Source: Pseudomonadota bacterium (GTDB lineage: Bacteria > UBA10199 > 2-02-FULL-44-16 > JAAZCA01). From it: a DNA stretch of 64,000 nucleotides. The stretch spans positions 1,456 through 65,455 of the forward strand of contig JAFGMW010000116.1 of NCBI GenBank assembly GCA_016927275.1, given 5' to 3'. The notes under the pieces were generated by a model, which saw only the letters and a list, made by a program, of their open reading frames with translations, did no database searches and was not told the origin of the DNA. Numbering within the stretch: position 1 is the stretch's first letter; the number at the start of each line of letters is the position of its first letter. The position numbers and the translations under genes were made by a program. Of the stretch, positions 40,292 through 47,830 are shown one piece after another.

Positions 40292-41269
40292 ATGCGCATG
40301 TTCATCGCCGTGTCTTTTGCCGCAGCCGCAGTGCTCGTCTGTGCGCCCCTGTGGGCGCAGACCCAGGTCACGGGCCAGGGGGGCCAGACCATAACCGAGA
40401 GCACCGAGCCGCCGCCGCGCACGATAATACCCGAGAAGAAGGCGCCCTCGGCGCAGCCCAGGCCCTATCAGGAGAGGAGCTACTCCGGGCCCTCGTATCA
40501 GCCGCAGTACCAGCCGATGCCCTACGGACATGGCTACCACGGCGCCGGCTCGACCAAGTGCGACCTCCCCGGCGGGTGCGATACTGCGGTGCCCGAGGGC
40601 GCGGTGACGCTCGAGCAGCTGGATGCGCGCAGGTCCGGCGCCGCTGCCCCCGCGCCGGTCCCGGCGCAGCGATACACCCCTCCGCCCCCGGCGCCGATGC
40701 CGCCGCCGCAGTACTCGACTCCGGCCCCTGCGCCTGCCCCTGCGCAGAGGTATGTCGCTCCGGCTCCGCAGAAAACGCCTGCCCCGGCTTATGAGGAGCC
40801 GATCTACGAGTCGTCGAAAGACAAGCCGGTGGTGCTCAGGCACTACATACCAGGGGTCTCCGATACGATGCCTGTCTATCCCGGAGCAGCCCCTTCGCCT
40901 GCACAGCGATACGCCCCACCGCCCCCTGCGCCGGCCCCGATGCCGTCACCGGCCCCGAAATATGCGGCGCCTGCCCCTGCGCCGGCCCCGATGCCGGCAC
41001 CGGCGCCCTCCTACGGGCCGGTGAAGAGCGATCTGCCGGGGTATTCGCCCGAGCCGCTCCCGCCGGGCACGATCCGGCTGGAGGACGTGAAGTCGCCGCA
41101 GTCCGGCTATGTGCCGCCGCCAAAGGGGGCAGGGCCTGCGCCCGCACCGGCTTACGACACAGCCCCTGCAAGGCAGATGGACCAGTACGAGGAGATACCC
41201 GCCCGGGCCGCACCTGACAGCGATCTCGAGGTGCAGAGGCCGGCCTCCCGCTGGAAGCAGGGGAAGTGA
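40292..41269 (+). CDS. secreted Pro/Ala-rich low-complexity protein
   Basis: Signal peptide MRMFIAVSFAAAAVLVCAPLWAQ followed by repeated PAPAPAQRY(A/V)PP motifs. Confidence 0.5.
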   Translation: MRMFIAVSFAAAAVLVCAPLWAQTQVTGQGGQTITESTEPPPRTIIPEKKAPSAQPRPYQERSYSGPSYQPQYQPMPYGHGYHGAGSTKCDLPGGCDTAVPEGAVTLEQLDARRSGAAAPAPVPAQRYTPPPPAPMPPPQYSTPAPAPAPAQRYVAPAPQKTPAPAYEEPIYESSKDKPVVLRHYIPGVSDTMPVYPGAAPSPAQRYAPPPPAPAPMPSPAPKYAAPAPAPAPMPAPAPSYGPVKSDLPGYSPEPLPPGTIRLEDVKSPQSGYVPPPKGAGPAPAPAYDTAPARQMDQYEEIPARAAPDSDLEVQRPASRWKQGK

Positions 41270-41355: not shown

Positions 41356-41442
41356 GGAGGGGTGCGTGAGTGGCCGAAACGGGCGGTCTTGAAAACCGCT
41401 GTGGCTGAAAAGCCACCGTGGGTTCGAATCCCACCCCCTCCG
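41356..41442 (+). tRNA. tRNA-Ser (anticodon UGA)
   Basis: ggaggggtgcgtgagtggccgaaacgggcggtcttgaaaaccgctgtggctgaaaagccaccgtgggttcgaatcccaccccctccg. Acceptor GGAGGGG/CCCCUCC, anticodon stem GCGGU/ACCGC with loop CUUGAAA, long variable arm, T-loop GGUUCGAAUCC. CCA not encoded. Confidence 0.85.
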
Positions 41443-41462
41443 CATTTTTTACGGGAAGCGCG

Positions 41463-43877
41463 ATGTCGCCATACTACAGACGAGACAGGAGCCAGGCCAA
41501 CCGCCAGCGCCAGATGCAGGAGCGCAAGCGCGCGCTCGCCAGGCGCGGCGGGGGCAGGTCAAAAGGGCCGGGCGTGCTGCGCAGGGCGGCGAGGCTCTTC
41601 AAGGTCCTCGTGGTGCTCGCGATCGTGGGCGGCGTGGCGCTCTTGTACCACTTCCATCACCTCGACGGGATGATCGAGGAGAAGTTCGACAGGCCGCGCA
41701 AATGGGACCTCCCCTCGCGAGTCTTCTCGGACGCCGAATACCTCTATCCGGGGCTGGACATAAAGGCGCGCAGCATCGCCTCCAAGCTCGACCGGCTCGA
41801 CTACCGCAACACCGGCCAGGAGATAAAGGGACCGGGCGAGTACTCGCTCACCGACTCGCGCCTGCTCATCCACCTGCACGACTTCGACTACCCGGACGAT
41901 CCGTTCAAGGGGTTCCCGCTAGAGGTCGGCATAGAGGGCGGCACCATCAGGCAGATGAAGAGGATGGACACCGGCGAGGCGCTGGAGATCGCGAGGCTGG
42001 AGCCGGAGCAGGTCGCCTCGATATTCAACGAGAAGATGGAGGACCGCACCCCCGTGGCCCTCTCCGACGTGCCGGAGAATCTCGTCCGGGCGATAATCCT
42101 GATCGAGGACGAGCGGTTCTTCGAGCATGGCGGCGTGGACCCGGTCGGCATCGCGCGCGCCGCGCTCGCGAACCTCAAGGCCCTGCGCATAGTGCAGGGC
42201 GGCTCCACTCTCACCCAGCAGCTCGTGAAGAACTTCTTCCTCTATCCGAAGAGGTCTTTCGCGCGAAAGCTCAACGAGATGCTCATAGCCTGGCGGATCG
42301 AGAAGAAGCACTCCAAGGGCGAGATACTCGAGGCGTATCTCAACGAGATATATCTCGGCCAGCGCGGCTCCGCCTCGGTCTCCGGCGTGGAGGAGGCCAG
42401 CCGCCTCTACTTCGGCAAGGCCGCGAGCCAGCTCACCGCAGGCGAGTGCGCGATGATAGCGGGCATGATCAAGTCGCCGAGCCTGTACAACCCGATCGCC
42501 AACCCCGAGAAGGCGAGGGAGCGGCGGGACTTCGTGCTGGCGGGCATGCGCGACAAGGGCTTCATCACCGCCGAGGAGCAGGGGAAGGCGAAGAAGGAGA
42601 AGATCGTGACCCCCAGGGTCAGGACGCGCACGGTCGTGGCGCCTTACTTCATAGACTTTTTGAAGCGGCAGCTCGCGGACCTGTACCCGCCCGACGTTCT
42701 CAAGACCGAGGGGCTGCGCATCTTCACCACGCTGGACATGTTCATGCAGCTGGCGGCCGAGCGGGCGGTTTCGCAGGGGATCGCCTCGCTGGAGAGGGAC
42801 TACGCGACGAGGCTGCCCAGGGAGCACGAGGGAGGGCTGCAGGCGTGTCTGGTTGCGGTCCAGCCGTCCACCGGCTACCTTCGCGCGCTCGTCGGCGGGC
42901 GCGACTACGCCGACACCCAGTTCGACCGGTGCACCCAGGCCATGCGCCAGCCGGGCTCGGTCTTCAAGCCGTTCGTGTACCTCACGGCCATGGACCCCGC
43001 GCGCAGCAGGGCGCTGTTCACACCGGCGTCGCTCGTGGACGACACCTCGTTCAGCGTGAGATCAGGCGGCAAGGATTGGAGCCCGGCCAACTACGACAAG
43101 AAGGAGCACGGTCCGGTGACTCTGAGAAGGGCGCTCGAGCAGAGCTACAACATAGCCAGCGCGAAGCTGGCGATCGAGGCGGGGCTCGAAAACGTCGTGA
43201 AGACCGCCAGGGACGCGGGCATCGAGAGCGAGCTGATGGCGGTCCCGTCCATGGCGCTCGGCGCCTTCGAGGTCACCCCCATGGAGATGGCCAGCGCATA
43301 CACGATCTTCCCCAACGGCGGCATCAGGGCGGACCCGGTCTCGATCATCAACGTGGTCACCAAGGAGGGTGAGGTCCTCGAGAAGAAGTCGCTCGTGATG
43401 AAGCGCGAGTTCGAGGCGGGGCCGGTCTTCCTCACCACGAGCGTCATGAAGGGCGTGCTCGACAGCGGGACGGGTGCCGGCGCGCGCAGCAGGGGCTTCA
43501 CCGCGATCGCGGCCGGCAAGACCGGCACGACCTCGAGCTACCGCGACGCATGGTTCGTCGGGTTCACTCCCAAGCTGCTGGCGCTTTCGTGGGTGGGCTA
43601 CGACGACAACGCCACGATGAACCTGAGCGGAGCCTCGGGCGCGCTGCCGATCTGGACGAAATTCATGAACGAGGTGCGGCCCAACGGCGACGGCGATTTC
43701 TCTGGTCCGTCCGGCGTCATTCTGGTAAAGATCGACCCTGTGACCGGCGGGCTTTCAGATTCCTCCTGTCCGGGCGGGAGATTCGAGGTCTTCATCAAGG
43801 GAACGGAGCCCGAAAAGACATGCAGCGAGATAGGGACCGACGCATCGGCACGGGAGACCGCTCCCATGGAGTTCTAG
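41463..43877 (+). CDS. class A penicillin-binding protein (PBP1A family; bifunctional glycosyltransferase/transpeptidase)
   Basis: GT51 motifs (RAIILIEDERFFEHGGVD, GGSTLTQQLVKN) and transpeptidase SxxK (SVFKPF), SxN, KTGTT. The N-terminal TM anchor starts after the tRNA-Ser. Confidence 0.9.
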   Translation: MSPYYRRDRSQANRQRQMQERKRALARRGGGRSKGPGVLRRAARLFKVLVVLAIVGGVALLYHFHHLDGMIEEKFDRPRKWDLPSRVFSDAEYLYPGLDIKARSIASKLDRLDYRNTGQEIKGPGEYSLTDSRLLIHLHDFDYPDDPFKGFPLEVGIEGGTIRQMKRMDTGEALEIARLEPEQVASIFNEKMEDRTPVALSDVPENLVRAIILIEDERFFEHGGVDPVGIARAALANLKALRIVQGGSTLTQQLVKNFFLYPKRSFARKLNEMLIAWRIEKKHSKGEILEAYLNEIYLGQRGSASVSGVEEASRLYFGKAASQLTAGECAMIAGMIKSPSLYNPIANPEKARERRDFVLAGMRDKGFITAEEQGKAKKEKIVTPRVRTRTVVAPYFIDFLKRQLADLYPPDVLKTEGLRIFTTLDMFMQLAAERAVSQGIASLERDYATRLPREHEGGLQACLVAVQPSTGYLRALVGGRDYADTQFDRCTQAMRQPGSVFKPFVYLTAMDPARSRALFTPASLVDDTSFSVRSGGKDWSPANYDKKEHGPVTLRRALEQSYNIASAKLAIEAGLENVVKTARDAGIESELMAVPSMALGAFEVTPMEMASAYTIFPNGGIRADPVSIINVVTKEGEVLEKKSLVMKREFEAGPVFLTTSVMKGVLDSGTGAGARSRGFTAIAAGKTGTTSSYRDAWFVGFTPKLLALSWVGYDDNATMNLSGASGALPIWTKFMNEVRPNGDGDFSGPSGVILVKIDPVTGGLSDSSCPGGRFEVFIKGTEPEKTCSEIGTDASARETAPMEF

Positions 43878-44332
43878 GGATCGCACTGGCCCTGATCGCC
43901 GCGCTCTCGCTGACCGCTTGCCCCAGAAAACCCCCTCACAAGAAACTCCCGCCCGGCGCGCGCGTTCCGCCGAGGGAGGTCCGCGAGCCGGCGACCGCAC
44001 CTCAGATGGAGGTGGGGCCCGAGCGCCAGGCCTCGGAGAGGCTGGTCGAGAAGGGCAGGGCGCTCATGGAGAACGGGCAGTGCGAGCGCGCAGCGGCGTT
44101 GTTCAGGGACGCGGTGGGCGTGGACACGACCAACGGGCACGCCTACTACTACCTCGCCGTGGCTCAGGCGGAGCTGGGCCACCCCGACGTAGCCCTTGGG
44201 TTGCTCGACAAGGCGGAGGCGCTGCTGGCGCACGAAGAGCTCTGGGCGGAAAAAATCGACGAGTTGCGCCGGGAGCTGGGTTCGCGCGGGCCGGGCGAGA
44301 TCGTCCCGTCGCCGATAGATCAGGCTTTTTAA
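43820..44332 (+). CDS. small TPR-like lipoprotein (170 aa) overlapping the 3' end of the PBP1A gene
   Basis: ATG at 43820, 58 nt before the PBP stop, in another frame. Signal peptide with lipobox: MQRDRDRRIGTGDRSHGVLGIALALIAALSLTAC. TPR-like helices (GHAYYYLAVAQAELGHPDVALGLLDKAEALL). Confidence 0.5.
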   Translation: MQRDRDRRIGTGDRSHGVLGIALALIAALSLTACPRKPPHKKLPPGARVPPREVREPATAPQMEVGPERQASERLVEKGRALMENGQCERAAALFRDAVGVDTTNGHAYYYLAVAQAELGHPDVALGLLDKAEALLAHEELWAEKIDELRRELGSRGPGEIVPSPIDQAF

Positions 44333-44401
44333 ATCCGTGACTCGTGACTGGCGCAAGCACGCTAGTCACTAGTCACTAGTCACGAGTTGCCAGTCACGGC
44401 T
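44333..44401. repeat. inverted tandem-repeat hairpin built from GTGACT units between convergent genes
   Basis: cgtgactcgtgactggcgcaagcacgctagtcactagtcactagtcacgagttgccagtcacgg. Left GTGACTCGTGACTGG is complementary to right CCAGTCACG. Central (TAGTCAC)3. Confidence 0.6.
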
Positions 44402-44890
44402 TTATCCTTTGTATCGTTTGAACTGCGGAAACCAGCGTGGGACCGCCTTGCGGTATCTCTCGTATTCGTGGCCCAATCCATCCTTCAGCGCGGGCTCCTC
44501 GTAGAAGAGGACCCAGAAGTGTATGGCCCACGTGATTATCAGCGCGTAGGCCAACATGGCTATCCGGGACATGATGAGCGCCTCGCCCCACATGGTGAGC
44601 AGCACGCCGAGCATGAACGGATTGCGCACGTACCTGTACGGGCCGGCCACGGTGAAGACGCCGCCAGCGTCGTAGGGCGCGGGCCTGGAGGCGCCGGGCA
44701 GCAGCAGGACCGCCCCGCAGTAGAGGGTCAGCGGAGCGCCGACGGCGATGAGCGCGACGCCCGCGTAGCGGAACATGCCGATGTCCAGCATCGGGAAACT
44801 TGCGTCGAAGCGGGTCGCGAGCCACGGCCCCACGAAGAGCGACAGCACCATGAAGACCATGCCCCAGATGATCGTGCGGAATACGAACAT
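44402..44890 (-). CDS. isoprenylcysteine carboxyl methyltransferase (ICMT)/phospholipid methyltransferase-family membrane protein
   Basis: C-terminal VRNPFMLG....YEEPAL..GHEYERYRKAVPRW matches the ICMT-family RHPxY...EE motif. Start chosen at MFVFRTIIW (AAGGGG SD). The upstream part of the long ORF overlaps the convergent PduO gene and was discarded. Confidence 0.65.
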   Translation of the reverse strand: MFVFRTIIWGMVFMVLSLFVGPWLATRFDASFPMLDIGMFRYAGVALIAVGAPLTLYCGAVLLLPGASRPAPYDAGGVFTVAGPYRYVRNPFMLGVLLTMWGEALIMSRIAMLAYALIITWAIHFWVLFYEEPALKDGLGHEYERYRKAVPRWFPQFKRYKG

Positions 44891-44992
44891 GGAAAACCCC
44901 TTGATTTCCGGATGATATTTGCACGGGAGGGACATGTCAACCAGGGCTTTTAGCAGGTTTACAAAATCGCGCGCATTACTTAGATTGACGGC

Positions 44993-45556
44993 ATGGGCAT
45001 AGTGACGGGGGCAGGCGATCGGCGCAGGACGAGGCTCATATCGGGCGAGGAGGTAGCAAAGTCGGATCCCCGCATCGAGGCGGTGGGCGCCATCGACGAG
45101 CTCAACTCCCACATGGGGCTCGCGCGCGCCATGGCCGAAAAATACGGCGGACGATTGAGCGGACAGGCCCGGGAGATGCGCGAGCTGCAGCTGGAGCTCT
45201 TCCGCATGGCGGGCGAGCTTTGCTGCGCCGACATCTCGAAGCAGGGCTGGGTCGAGCCCACCTCGGTGCGCCATGTCGAGAGCATCGAGGCAAGGATCGC
45301 GGCGCTCGAGCGCTCGATCGAGCTCCCCCGCTCATTCATCGTCCCGGGCGCGTGCGATGCCTCGGCGGCCCTGGACATGGCGCGCGCCGTGGCGCGTAGG
45401 CTGGAGAGGCACGCGGTGAGGATGTCCGAGGACGGCCTGTACGACAACGAGCAGGGGCTGGTCTACCTCAACAGGCTCTCCGACTACCTCTTTCTTCTCG
45501 CGCGCGCGATCGAGAAGGCGGCGGGCGTCCCCTTCTCCACGAAGGAGGGCCAGTGA
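44993..45556 (+). CDS. PduO-type ATP:cob(I)alamin adenosyltransferase
   Basis: N-terminal GDRRRTRLISGEEVAKSDPRIEAVGAIDELNS matches the PduO/MMAB family. 187 aa. Confidence 0.8.
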   Translation: MGIVTGAGDRRRTRLISGEEVAKSDPRIEAVGAIDELNSHMGLARAMAEKYGGRLSGQAREMRELQLELFRMAGELCCADISKQGWVEPTSVRHVESIEARIAALERSIELPRSFIVPGACDASAALDMARAVARRLERHAVRMSEDGLYDNEQGLVYLNRLSDYLFLLARAIEKAAGVPFSTKEGQ

Positions 45557-46794: not shown

Positions 46795-46978
46795 ATAACT
46801 CGTGGCTTCGGGGCCTGTCAGCGGGTCGGGGGACACTGTCTCGCTACGGCTCGTTCGCTCAGGCGCCGCTCACTCGCCTGCGTCTCTTCGCCGCGGTCAT
46901 CGCAGGGCTCTTGATTCGCGGCGAATTCACACGCCGCTCAACAGGGTCCCCCGACCCGCTGACACCCGAAGCCTCCAA
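46795..46978. repeat. MITE-like element upstream of queG: ~33-nt near-identical terminal inverted repeats flanking ~95 nt
   Basis: Left arm ggcttcggggcctgtcagcgggtcgggggacactgtc. Right arm acagggtcccccgacccgctgacacccgaagcc. The interior contains ctcgctac/ctcgttcgc motifs resembling the 29940-30360 element. Confidence 0.55.
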
Positions 46979-46990
46979 GGTAATAGAGTG

Positions 46991-47830
46991 ATGAAGGAGC
47001 TGATAAAGAAGAGGGCGATCGAGGTCGGTTTTGCGCTGTGCGGGGTGACCACGGCCGAGCCGGTCGATGAGCTTGCGCATCTGCAGGGGGCGATTGCAAA
47101 CGGCAGGGTCGCCTCGATGAACTATCTGGCGCGCGACCCTGCGGCGCGCTGCGACCCGCGTTCGCTCCTCGCCGGCGCGCGCTCGGTGATATGCTGTGCG
47201 CTTGCGTACGGCGAATCGGGGATCGGCGACCGGGGATCGGGGACCATGGATCGGGAAAGCTCTTTCAGGTCCCGGGTCCCGGGTCCCGGGTCCCGAGTTT
47301 TGAGGGCCAGGTTCGCGCGCGGGGCCGAGTATCACGCGGAGGTGGGGCGGAGGCTTACGCTACTGTGGGATGCGATTCGAGAGCGGGCGCCCGGCGCCAG
47401 CGCGAAGGCCTGCTGCGACACGAGCCCGATTCTCGAGAAGGCCCTGGCACAGCGCGCTGGGCTGGGCTGGATCGGCAGGCACACGGTGCTGGTGAACCGC
47501 GAGCTGGGCTCGTGGTTCGTGCTGGGCGAGATCGTGACCGATCTCGAGCTCGAGCCGGACTCCCCGCACGATGATCTCTGCGGCGACTGCACAAAGTGCC
47601 TGGACGCCTGCCCTGCGCGCGCGATCCTCTCGCCGCGCACGCTCGACGCCCAGAAGTGCATCTCCTATCTCACCATAGAAGCCCCGCGCCTTGAGATTGG
47701 GATCGGGGATCAGGGATCAGGAACCGGGAGAACCCTTCCATGTCCCGGGTCCCGGGTCCCGGGTCCCGGGTACGGCTGCGACCTCTGCCAGGAGGCATGC
47801 CCTTATAACAATAGAGGATGCGCCCAATAG
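46991..47830 (+). CDS. queG: epoxyqueuosine reductase (QueG)-like, carrying two in-frame repeat insertions and an apparently short C-terminus
   Basis: DUF1730-like N-terminal region, then two 4Fe-4S motifs CGDCTKCLDACP and CDLCQEACPYN. Insertions at 47213-47300 and 47700-47785 are both in frame. The ORF stops 6 codons after the second cluster, whereas QueG proteins are usually ~100 aa longer. Confidence 0.7.
   Translation: MKELIKKRAIEVGFALCGVTTAEPVDELAHLQGAIANGRVASMNYLARDPAARCDPRSLLAGARSVICCALAYGESGIGDRGSGTMDRESSFRSRVPGPGSRVLRARFARGAEYHAEVGRRLTLLWDAIRERAPGASAKACCDTSPILEKALAQRAGLGWIGRHTVLVNRELGSWFVLGEIVTDLELEPDSPHDDLCGDCTKCLDACPARAILSPRTLDAQKCISYLTIEAPRLEIGIGDQGSGTGRTLPCPGSRVPGPGYGCDLCQEACPYNNRGCAQ

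Follow-up and report, generated by a model that had tools for sequence, protein, structure and literature searches.

A TPR lipoprotein gene that starts inside a PBP1B gene: a candidate LpoP-like partner of the synthase in uncultivated bacteria

Here we describe a small gene, at 43820-44332 of the 64,000-nucleotide stretch of DNA analysed (the window), which encodes a lipoprotein with a TPR domain, begins inside the gene of a class A PBP of PBP1B type, and is paired with it throughout the related loci. By analogy with characterized systems, we propose that its product is an LpoP-like lipoprotein cofactor or activator of the PBP1B encoded just upstream, a reading to which we give a probability of about 0.6.

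The lipoprotein activators of class A PBPs (LpoA, LpoB and LpoP) have so far been described in gammaproteobacteria only, and none has been described for these uncultivated bacteria. The original prediction, made from the letters of the DNA, had pictured an analogous, undescribed partner. Since LpoP is itself a tethered TPR lipoprotein that is encoded beside PBP1B and activates it, this kind of system is already known; what stands is that the family carries no name in the sources searched and, as far as sequence comparison goes, appears to be new, with no specific similarity to the solved LpoP and with MAG labels outside gammaproteobacteria. If a PBP1B and TPR-lipoprotein module is indeed at work here, this would suggest that tethered-TPR activation is older and wider than known, or has arisen repeatedly, and a compact protein of ~90 structured residues would be at hand to study the activation of UB2H-type synthases.

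The synthase and its docking domain

The upstream gene and its surroundings comprise the following features.

41356-41443, forward strand: tRNA-Ser(TGA), directly 5′ of the PBP gene (ARAGORN; Rfam tRNA, 55 bits)
41463-43877, forward strand: class A PBP of PBP1B type, 804 aa from ATG 41463 (Pfam UB2H, Transgly and Transpeptidase)
41742-41999, forward strand: UB2H domain of the PBP (Pfam PF14814, E=1.9e-16, residues 109-194 counted from 41418)

The start of the PBP is probably ATG 41463, because GTG 41418 falls within the tRNA-Ser gene, which sets the 5′ limit of the ORF. Although the synthase had been named PBP1A in the original prediction, it is of PBP1B type: it contains a UB2H domain, its top NCBIfam match is TIGR02071 PBP_1b (611 bits), and its best solved match is E. 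coli PBP1B (3VMA/5HL9), aligned in one stretch over residues 47-741 (3VMA, E=1.7e-110) that covers the UB2H, GT and TP domains. The UB2H domain is the docking site for Lpo activators in the PBP1B of E. coli and P. aeruginosa (PMC7267771; PMC6220978), and its recognition in the upstream PBP suggests that the domain required by an LpoP-like partner is in place. At its other end, the PBP finishes in a disordered tail, ...ETAPMEF.

A start codon embedded in the synthase gene

The junction between both genes was read directly from the sequence.

43820-44332, forward strand: TPR lipoprotein gene, 170 aa plus stop
43820-43877, forward strand: out-of-frame overlap between the 3′ end of the PBP gene and the start of the lipoprotein gene, 58 nt
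43797-43822, forward strand: translation-initiation region of the lipoprotein, within the PBP GTEPxxxC motif (direct reading of the sequence)

The lipoprotein frame has been open since 43550, and ATG 43820 is the sole ATG, GTG or TTG that keeps a signal peptide ahead of the lipobox, so that the start originally chosen is the right one. The PBP stop, TAG, occupies 43875-43877; the overlap therefore runs from 43820 to 43877 and has the length of 58 nt first assigned to it. The initiation signals are carved out of PBP codons: an SD-like GGAG (43805-43808), 11 nt 5′ of the ATG, derives from the Thr-Glu codons, and the ATG itself (43820-43822) arises from ACA-TGC spanning the Cys codon of the conserved GTEPxxxC motif. 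The ATG is placed on this same Cys codon in ~10 distinct related loci, and GGAG is found at the equivalent place in five of nine. Many relatives show overlaps of 4-130 nt; taken over all loci, the junctions extend from an overlap of 130 nt to a gap of 187 nt. No promoter-like site was found between the PBP and lipoprotein genes. We infer that both genes are probably co-transcribed, and that the lipoprotein would be translated from the SD and ATG buried in the coding motif of the PBP C-terminus.

The signal peptide and the lipobox Cys are kept in every homologue whose aligned sequence covers that region. A longer N-terminus is also excluded, as the frame of three related loci (L003, L005 and L009) closes 21-84 nt 5′ of the equivalent ATG. 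Two other starts were considered and rejected: ATG 43550, which would give a longer ORF whose added part is an out-of-frame read of the PBP and whose frame is closed there in relatives, and the internal Met63 of a public gene call (P0001), which is not conserved and would cost the protein its conserved lipobox. The long form starting at ATG 43820 is the real protein. The point has a practical side: as the true start lies within the PBP gene, ~1/3 of the public gene calls for the family begin at an internal Met and lack the signal peptide, and automated annotation thus conceals their lipoprotein nature.

Architecture and family of the lipoprotein

From its N- to its C-terminus, the protein is built of four segments.

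43820-43921, forward strand: lipoprotein signal peptide, with n-region MQRDRDRRIGTGDRSHG, h-region VLGIALALIAALS and lipobox LTAC with Cys34
43922-44017, forward strand: disordered Pro-/Lys-rich linker, residues 35-66, 32 aa (AF2 pLDDT 53-62, without secondary structure)
44018-44278, forward strand: globular TPR domain, residues 67-153 (AF2 pLDDT 93-98; Pfam TPR_16/TPR_19)
44279-44329, forward strand: disordered, conserved C-terminal tail ending VPSPIDQAF (alignment, AF2)

The N-terminus reads MQRDRDRRIGTGDRSHG-VLGIALALIAALS-LTAC, a basic n-region followed by a hydrophobic h-region, with a signal peptide helix predicted at residues 15-30 (AF2), the Cys34 codon at 43919-43921 and Pro at +2. The lipobox LTAC had been correctly recognized from the outset, and its Cys is invariant in the aligned members of the broad family (27/27). 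The linker carries a conserved basic motif, PRKPPHKKLPP, directly after the lipid anchor (alignments A1 and A3), and its length varies across the family between 17 and 59 aa (median 37).

The TPR nature of the globular domain was likewise borne out, both by Pfam and by the AF2 model, a single-chain prediction that drew on database sequences: two TPR repeats and a capping helix, with helices at residues 67-84, 88-101, 106-118, 122-135 and 140-153. Compared with the PDB by Foldseek, it retrieves, among 1468 matches, generic TPR folds with TM to target of 0.6-0.8. No second domain was found by Pfam in the 170 aa, the matches being TPR variants and the TPR-based ANAPC3 only. The tail ends in F or Y in 85 of 99 family members.

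The gene is not a chance ORF, as seen from Pfam, from AF2, from 99 database clusters at E<=1e-15, and from an exhaustive HMM search that returned 42 representatives at E<=1e-30 and 795 at E<=1e-10. The MAGs concerned are labelled Deltaproteobacteria, Bdellovibrio-like, Myxococcales and Pseudomonadota, their placement being that of the labels themselves.

Conservation of the gene pair

The original prediction had named the keeping of the pair in relatives as a check, and the pair is kept: PBP1B lies directly upstream, on the same strand, in each of the 27 distinct loci that are informative, with lipoprotein identity as low as ~26%. In the closer family this arrangement is found in all 21 distinct loci, with PBP1B homologues of 59-77% identity (tblastn, 18 loci). 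The distant subgroup keeps it in six out of six, where identities fall to 26-36% for the lipoprotein and 44-56% for the PBP; the alignment of this subgroup (A4) served for the pattern scan, the broad alignment (A3) being too diverse.

These data bear on the reading that the protein is one of the generic TPR lipoproteins of the envelope, of PilF/PilW or BamD type, and that its place beside a PBP gene has no functional meaning. The Pfam, NCBIfam and PDB matches are indeed all generic TPR, and one JGI record labels a homologue "PilF". Nevertheless, the NCBIfam matches all lie far under their cut-offs, the pair is retained across the 27 loci while the other neighbours vary, and the start codon is embedded in PBP coding sequence in many lineages, all of which makes this reading extremely unlikely.

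Comparison with known partners of class A PBPs

LpoP, which is encoded beside ponB, is a lipoprotein of the outer membrane that carries a TPR domain at its C-terminus, after a disordered linker; in P. aeruginosa and A. baumannii it docks on UB2H and activates PBP1B (PMC7267771; PMC7943195). The lipoprotein described here resembles it (PA4699, PDB 6W5Q; A. baumannii WP_000913437.1) in having a lipobox, a disordered linker and, at the C-terminus, a small TPR domain, as well as in the direct adjacency of its gene to that of a UB2H-containing PBP1B. This common plan (PMC7267771) argues, by analogy, for an LpoP-like function. Moreover, the A. baumannii LpoP, which activates its PBP1B, was found by the same route, as a lipoprotein gene beside the PBP1B gene, and is described with two TPRs, the same number as here (PMC7943195).

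The differences are also clear. The TPR domain of LpoP has six helices, versus five here, and its linker (residues 20-146) is ~127 aa long, versus 32 aa here and 17-59 aa in the family (PMC7267771). Two more features set the family apart from LpoP: its proteins end in a conserved aromatic tail, and their translation begins within the PBP gene. No counterpart of the conserved tails is described in the LpoP literature examined. LpoP is reported only in gammaproteobacteria (PMC8536351), whereas the family comes from uncultivated MAGs labelled otherwise. Searches of the PDB sequence set, which includes 6W5Q, listed generic and designed TPRs: 6W5Q was absent from all 38 matches of the single lipoprotein sequence at E<=10, and from the best 60 of 92 and the best 60 of 235 matches of two family profiles. 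LpoP was also absent from the best 50 of the 1468 Foldseek matches, a comparison in which the generic TPR fold does not discriminate. The five helices, the short linker, the tails and the lack of specific similarity to 6W5Q speak against the LpoP-like reading.

LpoB is likewise a lipoprotein whose small globular domain follows a disordered tether, and its partner is of the same type, a PBP1B with UB2H; its gene is not known to be located beside mrcB in E. coli. In that bacterium it is an outer-membrane lipoprotein whose globular domain, at the end of a long disordered tether, binds UB2H and activates PBP1B (PMC6220978; PMC7267771). [quoted passage not shown]

LpoA, in turn, shares with our protein the TPR-like repeats; it is an outer-membrane lipoprotein that regulates a class A PBP. 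It is large; besides a TPR part that acts as spacer, it has a distinct domain at the C-terminus for binding to the ODD domain of PBP1A (PMC7267771; PMC4111904), whereas the present protein has 170 aa, a single TPR domain and a partner with UB2H instead of ODD.

CpoB (YbgF) is a soluble periplasmic protein with a small TPR domain that contacts PBP1B. It is no lipoprotein, it is encoded with tol-pal, and it modulates rather than activates (PMC4458516; PMC7267771), whereas a lipobox is present here and the scanned neighbours of the pair included no tol-pal gene.

A negative regulator or protease adaptor could also be considered, that is, a CpoB-like damper of PBP1B, or a TPR lipoprotein of NlpI/LbcA kind that hands PBP1B or a hydrolase over to a protease of the C-terminal processing type; we hold this to be highly unlikely. 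The aromatic C-termini would fit such a role, since proteases with PDZ domains typically rely on hydrophobic or aromatic residues at the C-terminus of their targets. NlpI and LbcA, however, are much larger, multi-TPR proteins, CpoB lacks a lipid anchor, and the scanned neighbours include no protease or tol-pal gene conserved beside the pair, the conserved ones being PEMT, cobalamin adenosyltransferase and CutA1. On the other side, the TPR domain of CpoB is the closest structural relative reported for that of LpoP, and the regulation of class A PBPs makes repeated use of TPR modules (PMC7267771).

Position in the envelope

According to the LpoP-like reading, the protein would be exported, lipidated on Cys34 and, given that +2 is not Asp, sorted to the outer membrane. 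The 32-residue disordered linker would let the TPR domain span the peptidoglycan to reach the PBP, where it would bind at or near UB2H and boost glycosyltransferase and transpeptidase activities, as LpoP does in Pseudomonas and Acinetobacter; for LpoP, the stimulation of GTase was 4.5-fold. Outer-membrane sorting would fit the sequences: Asp at +2 occurs in 0/61 family members, and outer-membrane-dependent genes are present in related loci (OEP/TolC-like in L023, TonB_C in L024). The shortest linkers of the family may be too short to span the distance from the outer membrane to UB2H.

The lipoprotein might instead stay in the inner membrane, as a constitutive cofactor or scaffold for PBP1B close to the membrane, rather than an activator reaching through the peptidoglycan. 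The linkers point in that direction, as even their upper limit of 59 aa is far under the length in LpoP (PMC7267771); the conserved basic motif after the lipid anchor could be a retention or membrane-contact signal, and the +2 sorting rule is enterobacterial and may not hold in this lineage. Nonetheless, the consistent lack of Asp at +2, together with the fact that the known Lpo proteins are all outer-membrane lipoproteins, leads us to regard this topology as unlikely. Furthermore, a mislocalised LpoB is reported to be still able to activate PBP1B (PMC9593243), so topology would not decide function.

The C-terminal tails

In both partners the last residue of the disordered C-terminal tail is F or Y, and the aromatic tails tend to occur together: they are present in both proteins in 15 loci, in neither in eight and mixed in three (Fisher p=2e-4, without phylogenetic correction). 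The TPR groove could recognize the acidic-aromatic tail of PBP1B (...APMEF-COOH), the lipoprotein's own similar tail (...IDQAF-COOH) acting as a cis competitor or second ligand, and docking would take place via the PBP C-terminus rather than, or besides, UB2H. In line with this, peptide-binding TPRs, for instance CHIP in complex with the Hsp70 tail, are among the closest natural structural matches (best 50 of the 1468 Foldseek matches). Yet the association may stem from one or two clade-level events, AF2 gives no confident cis docking of the lipoprotein tail (pLDDT 57-74), and the conserved TPR residues are mostly those of the structural consensus. Moreover, distant subfamilies retain the gene pair without tails, which therefore cannot be the core of the partnership, and we judge such docking to be decidedly improbable.

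A broader proposal is that these PBP1B-coupled TPR lipoproteins evolved independently instead of diverging from LpoP, as a third solution after LpoB and LpoP, with the matched acidic-aromatic tails taking part in the mechanism, for example through a TPR groove clamping the PBP tail while the lipoprotein's own tail competes. We consider it unlikely, and continue to favour an LpoP-like cofactor.

Genomic surroundings of the pair

The neighbours scanned were tRNA-Ser, PBP1B, PEMT, Cob adenosyltransferase, CutA1 and QueG. The Rfam search of the DNA gave two tRNAs and no other matches. The PEMT gene is convergent with the lipoprotein gene, and a strong hairpin lies between both.

44337-44376, strand not assigned: hairpin with AGTCAC(T/G) heptamer repeats, between the lipoprotein and PEMT genes (RNA fold -31.3 kcal/mol, z=-4.9)

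The AGTCAC(T/G) motif is present nowhere else in the window, and the hairpin is likely a transcript end or stabiliser.

The lipoprotein gene and its start

The features concerned are the following:
41463-43877, + strand, class A penicillin-binding protein (PBP)
43820-44332, + strand, 170-aa TPR lipoprotein
44337-44376, hairpin 3' of the lipoprotein gene
44402-45274, - strand, PEMT-domain ORF

The lipoprotein frame runs open from 43550 until its stop codon (44330-44332), and ATG 43820 is the sole canonical start in it that leaves a signal peptide ahead of the lipobox, the next ATG being that of Met63 at 44006. The product begins with MQRDRDRRIGTGDRSHG-VLGIALALIAALS-LTAC, i.e., a basic n-region, a hydrophobic h-region and a lipobox whose cysteine is Cys34 (codon 43919-43921). 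The PBP stop codon (TAG) lies at 43875-43877 and the two genes share 58 nt in different frames; a Shine-Dalgarno-like GGAG is found at 43805-43808, 11 nt 5' of the ATG. The original prediction had proposed this start, with its n-region, h-region and lipobox, and the out-of-frame overlap, and both are borne out. A longer N-terminus is excluded because three related loci (L003, L005 and L009) have this frame closed at 21-84 nt before the corresponding ATG.

The ORF is a real gene and its long form is correct. Pfam TPR_16 and TPR_19 match residues 77-138, and AlphaFold2, run on a family alignment, gives a signal-peptide helix (residues 15-30), a disordered stretch (31-66, pLDDT 53-62), five helices (67-84, 88-101, 106-118, 122-135 and 140-153, pLDDT 93-98) and a tail of lower confidence (154-170), which confirms the TPR-like nature first proposed. 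A word-indexed search started from the single sequence returned 23 homologues, and one started from a family profile returned 99 clusters at E<=1e-15, beyond which the score falls sharply. When 1.84 billion representatives were searched exhaustively with an HMM, 42 proteins reached E<=1e-30 and 795 reached E<=1e-10. Of the top 150 matches, about 110 are small proteins (74-206 aa) aligned in a single stretch over most of the profile, among which P0094, P0170, P0184, P0194, P0200 and P0207 match its C-terminal half only. In a broad alignment of 27 sequences that share 26-45% identity with the window protein, the lipobox cysteine never varies. All homologues come from MAGs labeled "bacterium", "Pseudomonadota bacterium", "Deltaproteobacteria bacterium", Bdellovibrio-like or Myxococcales, and their most specific names are "TPR repeat protein" and "hypothetical protein", apart from one JGI record called "Tfp pilus assembly protein PilF".

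Public gene callers often pick an internal Met as the start in this family, apparently misled by the overlap of the true start with the PBP gene. Homologue P0001, for example, was called at 108 aa and matches window residues 63-170 with 100% identity. Such truncated calls, of 75-140 aa and devoid of signal peptide and lipobox, make up about a third of the family entries (~34 of 99); for P0004, P0013, P0023 and P0098, an in-frame upstream extension carrying both elements was verified in the DNA.

A basic motif is conserved right behind the lipidated Cys (PRKPPHKKLPP, residues 35-45, window 43922-43954), and 32 of 61 members have [KR][KRH][LFIG]P within 30 aa of the lipobox Cys. The motif may act in sorting, or contact the membrane or the peptidoglycan.

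A PBP1B-type synthase upstream

The neighbor had been taken for a PBP1A, an identification that did not hold: by sequence comparison, the synthase is of the PBP1B type. In Pfam, its ORF matches UB2H (E=1.9e-16), Transgly and Transpeptidase; its top NCBIfam model is TIGR02071 PBP_1b, at 611 bits, under the equivalog cut-off of 717.75; and among solved structures it is closest to those of E. coli PBP1B (3VMA, 5HL9 and others). E. coli PBP1B aligns in one stretch (residues 47-741, E=1.7e-110), whereas the alignment to PBP1A structures breaks into two pieces. The longest mechanical ORF, from GTG 41418, begins within tRNA-Ser(TGA) (41356-41443), and the likely start is ATG 41463, 20 nt past the tRNA, giving 804 aa.

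Just upstream of the tRNA and the PBP gene lies an ORF (40292-41269) for a secreted, very proline-rich protein of 325 aa, with a signal peptide and repeated APAPAP / QRY.PPPPAP segments; a Pfam scan of it gave zero matches, and L001 has an unannotated 323-aa ORF at the equivalent position.

Conservation of the pair and its junction

Closer-family loci were gathered through look-ups of encoding contigs and a single pass over GTDB species genomes. After removal of duplicates, 21 distinct loci including the window remained, and in every one a PBP1B homologue stands immediately upstream on the same strand (59-77% tblastn identity to the window PBP in the 18 loci so tested); those with recorded annotation all show UB2H, Transgly and Transpeptidase in Pfam. 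In a distant subgroup from JGI metagenomes, marked by a YGPAYYWLA motif and 26-36% identical to the window lipoprotein, a PBP C-terminus is directly upstream in all seven loci with upstream sequence (six distinct); two further loci lacking such sequence were left out of the count, and L035, a weak match, is probably not a family member. Overall, the pair is kept in 27 of 27 informative distinct loci, the conservation in relatives that the original prediction called for. Other neighbors, namely a PEMT-like gene on the opposite strand, cobalamin adenosyltransferase and CutA1, are less steadily kept.

In one MAG (L002, JAZDOG010000080.1, 3404-5875) two ORFs take the place of a single PBP1B homologue, one with UB2H+Transgly and one with Transpeptidase, owing to a frameshift, an assembly error or pseudogenization; the lipoprotein ORF 3' of it is intact.

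At the junction, the two genes overlap by up to 130 nt in some loci and are separated by up to 187 nt in others. About ten distinct lineages (window, L001, L002, L005, L008, L009, L011, L013, L018 and L019) have a lipoprotein ATG that arises as NNA-TGC across the conserved Cys codon of the PBP C-terminal GTEPxxxC, which accounts for an N-terminus that recurs as M-[RQ]-R-[DN]. In 5 of 9 such loci a GGAG supplied by the Thr-Glu codons stands at equal distance from the ATG. A search between the two genes found no promoter-like site, and a strong hairpin (44337-44376, -31.3 kcal/mol, z=-4.9) follows the lipoprotein stop. We infer co-transcription and some translational coupling.

The hairpin region (44337-44383) consists of AGTCAC(T/G) heptamer repeats, found nowhere else within the window, between the convergent lipoprotein and PEMT genes. 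The mechanical PEMT ORF (290 aa, homologues ~161-166 aa) is probably over-extended; the stretch that encodes its N-terminus runs over the cobalamin adenosyltransferase gene, which lies on the other strand.

Comparison with LpoP

In Pseudomonas aeruginosa, LpoP is an outer-membrane lipoprotein lipidated at Cys19, with disordered residues 20-146 followed by a C-terminal six-helix tandem-TPR domain (154-258); PBP1B function in cells requires it, and it binds UB2H, stimulating GTase 4.5-fold and TPase 2-fold (PMC7267771). In A. baumannii, LpoP was identified from a lipoprotein gene with two TPRs that adjoins the PBP1B gene, and it too activates its own PBP1B (PMC7943195).

The window protein agrees with LpoP in every architectural and contextual respect compared, but not in sequence. 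The LpoP structure (6W5Q) is absent from the 38 PDB matches at E<=10 of a single-sequence query, from the best 60 of either of two family profiles and from the Foldseek top 50, being outscored by designed consensus TPRs, CHIP, MamA and similar; since TPR repeats converge easily, shared ancestry and independent origin both fit these results. By analogy, an LpoP-like cofactor of PBP1B is the best-supported reading. The protein would be exported, lipidated and anchored, probably in the outer membrane because none of 61 members has Asp at +2, and the linker would let it reach PBP1B and act at or near UB2H. However, the linker is short (32 aa, 17-59 aa across the family) and there are five helices rather than six, both of which weaken a simple transfer of the LpoP model; in a less likely rival topology, the lipoprotein would be anchored in the inner membrane.

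The idea of a PBP partner was right in spirit, but the synthase had been misassigned, and the kind of partner, proposed as analogous and undescribed, was already known as LpoP. What is new is an unnamed, fairly large family of LpoP design, with labels that put it beyond gammaproteobacteria, a sequence in which kinship to LpoP is not detected among the best-listed PDB matches, an initiation site embedded within the PBP gene, and C-terminal tails co-occurring in both proteins.

C-terminal tails that tend to co-occur

A terminal F or Y is present in 85 of 99 family members, usually behind a disordered tail such as VPSPIDQAF. When tails (window PBP 43830-43874, lipoprotein 44279-44329) were compared across L001-L031, the PBP of those loci was likewise seen to end in a tail with F or Y (APMEF, PGDF, RDTF, EDIY, GKRF, SGGF, DIEF, PDYF, GEVY, AESY, VETY, YDEF, QDMY, PNEF). 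Where the PBP stops directly after GTEPxxxC (L019, L021, L024, L025, L026, L029, L030 and L031), the lipoprotein usually lacks the aromatic end too. Over 26 distinct loci, 15 have both tails, 8 neither and 3 are mixed (Fisher's test, p=2e-4, which ignores phylogeny, so that few events may account for it). This suggests that both tails serve one receptor, which might be a third protein or the groove of the TPR domain. They cannot be the core of the partnership because distant subfamilies keep the gene pair without them.

Repeat elements in QueG

The ORF of QueG (epoxyqueuosine reductase, 46802-47830) holds two in-frame copies of a self-complementary element of ~70 nt, made of GGGGATC-type repeats and then GGTCCCG heptamer repeats:
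47214-47298, first copy
47701-47771, second copy
They contribute the segments "...GDRGSGT...PGPGSRVPG..." to the protein, and look like small palindromic repeat elements inserted into the coding region.
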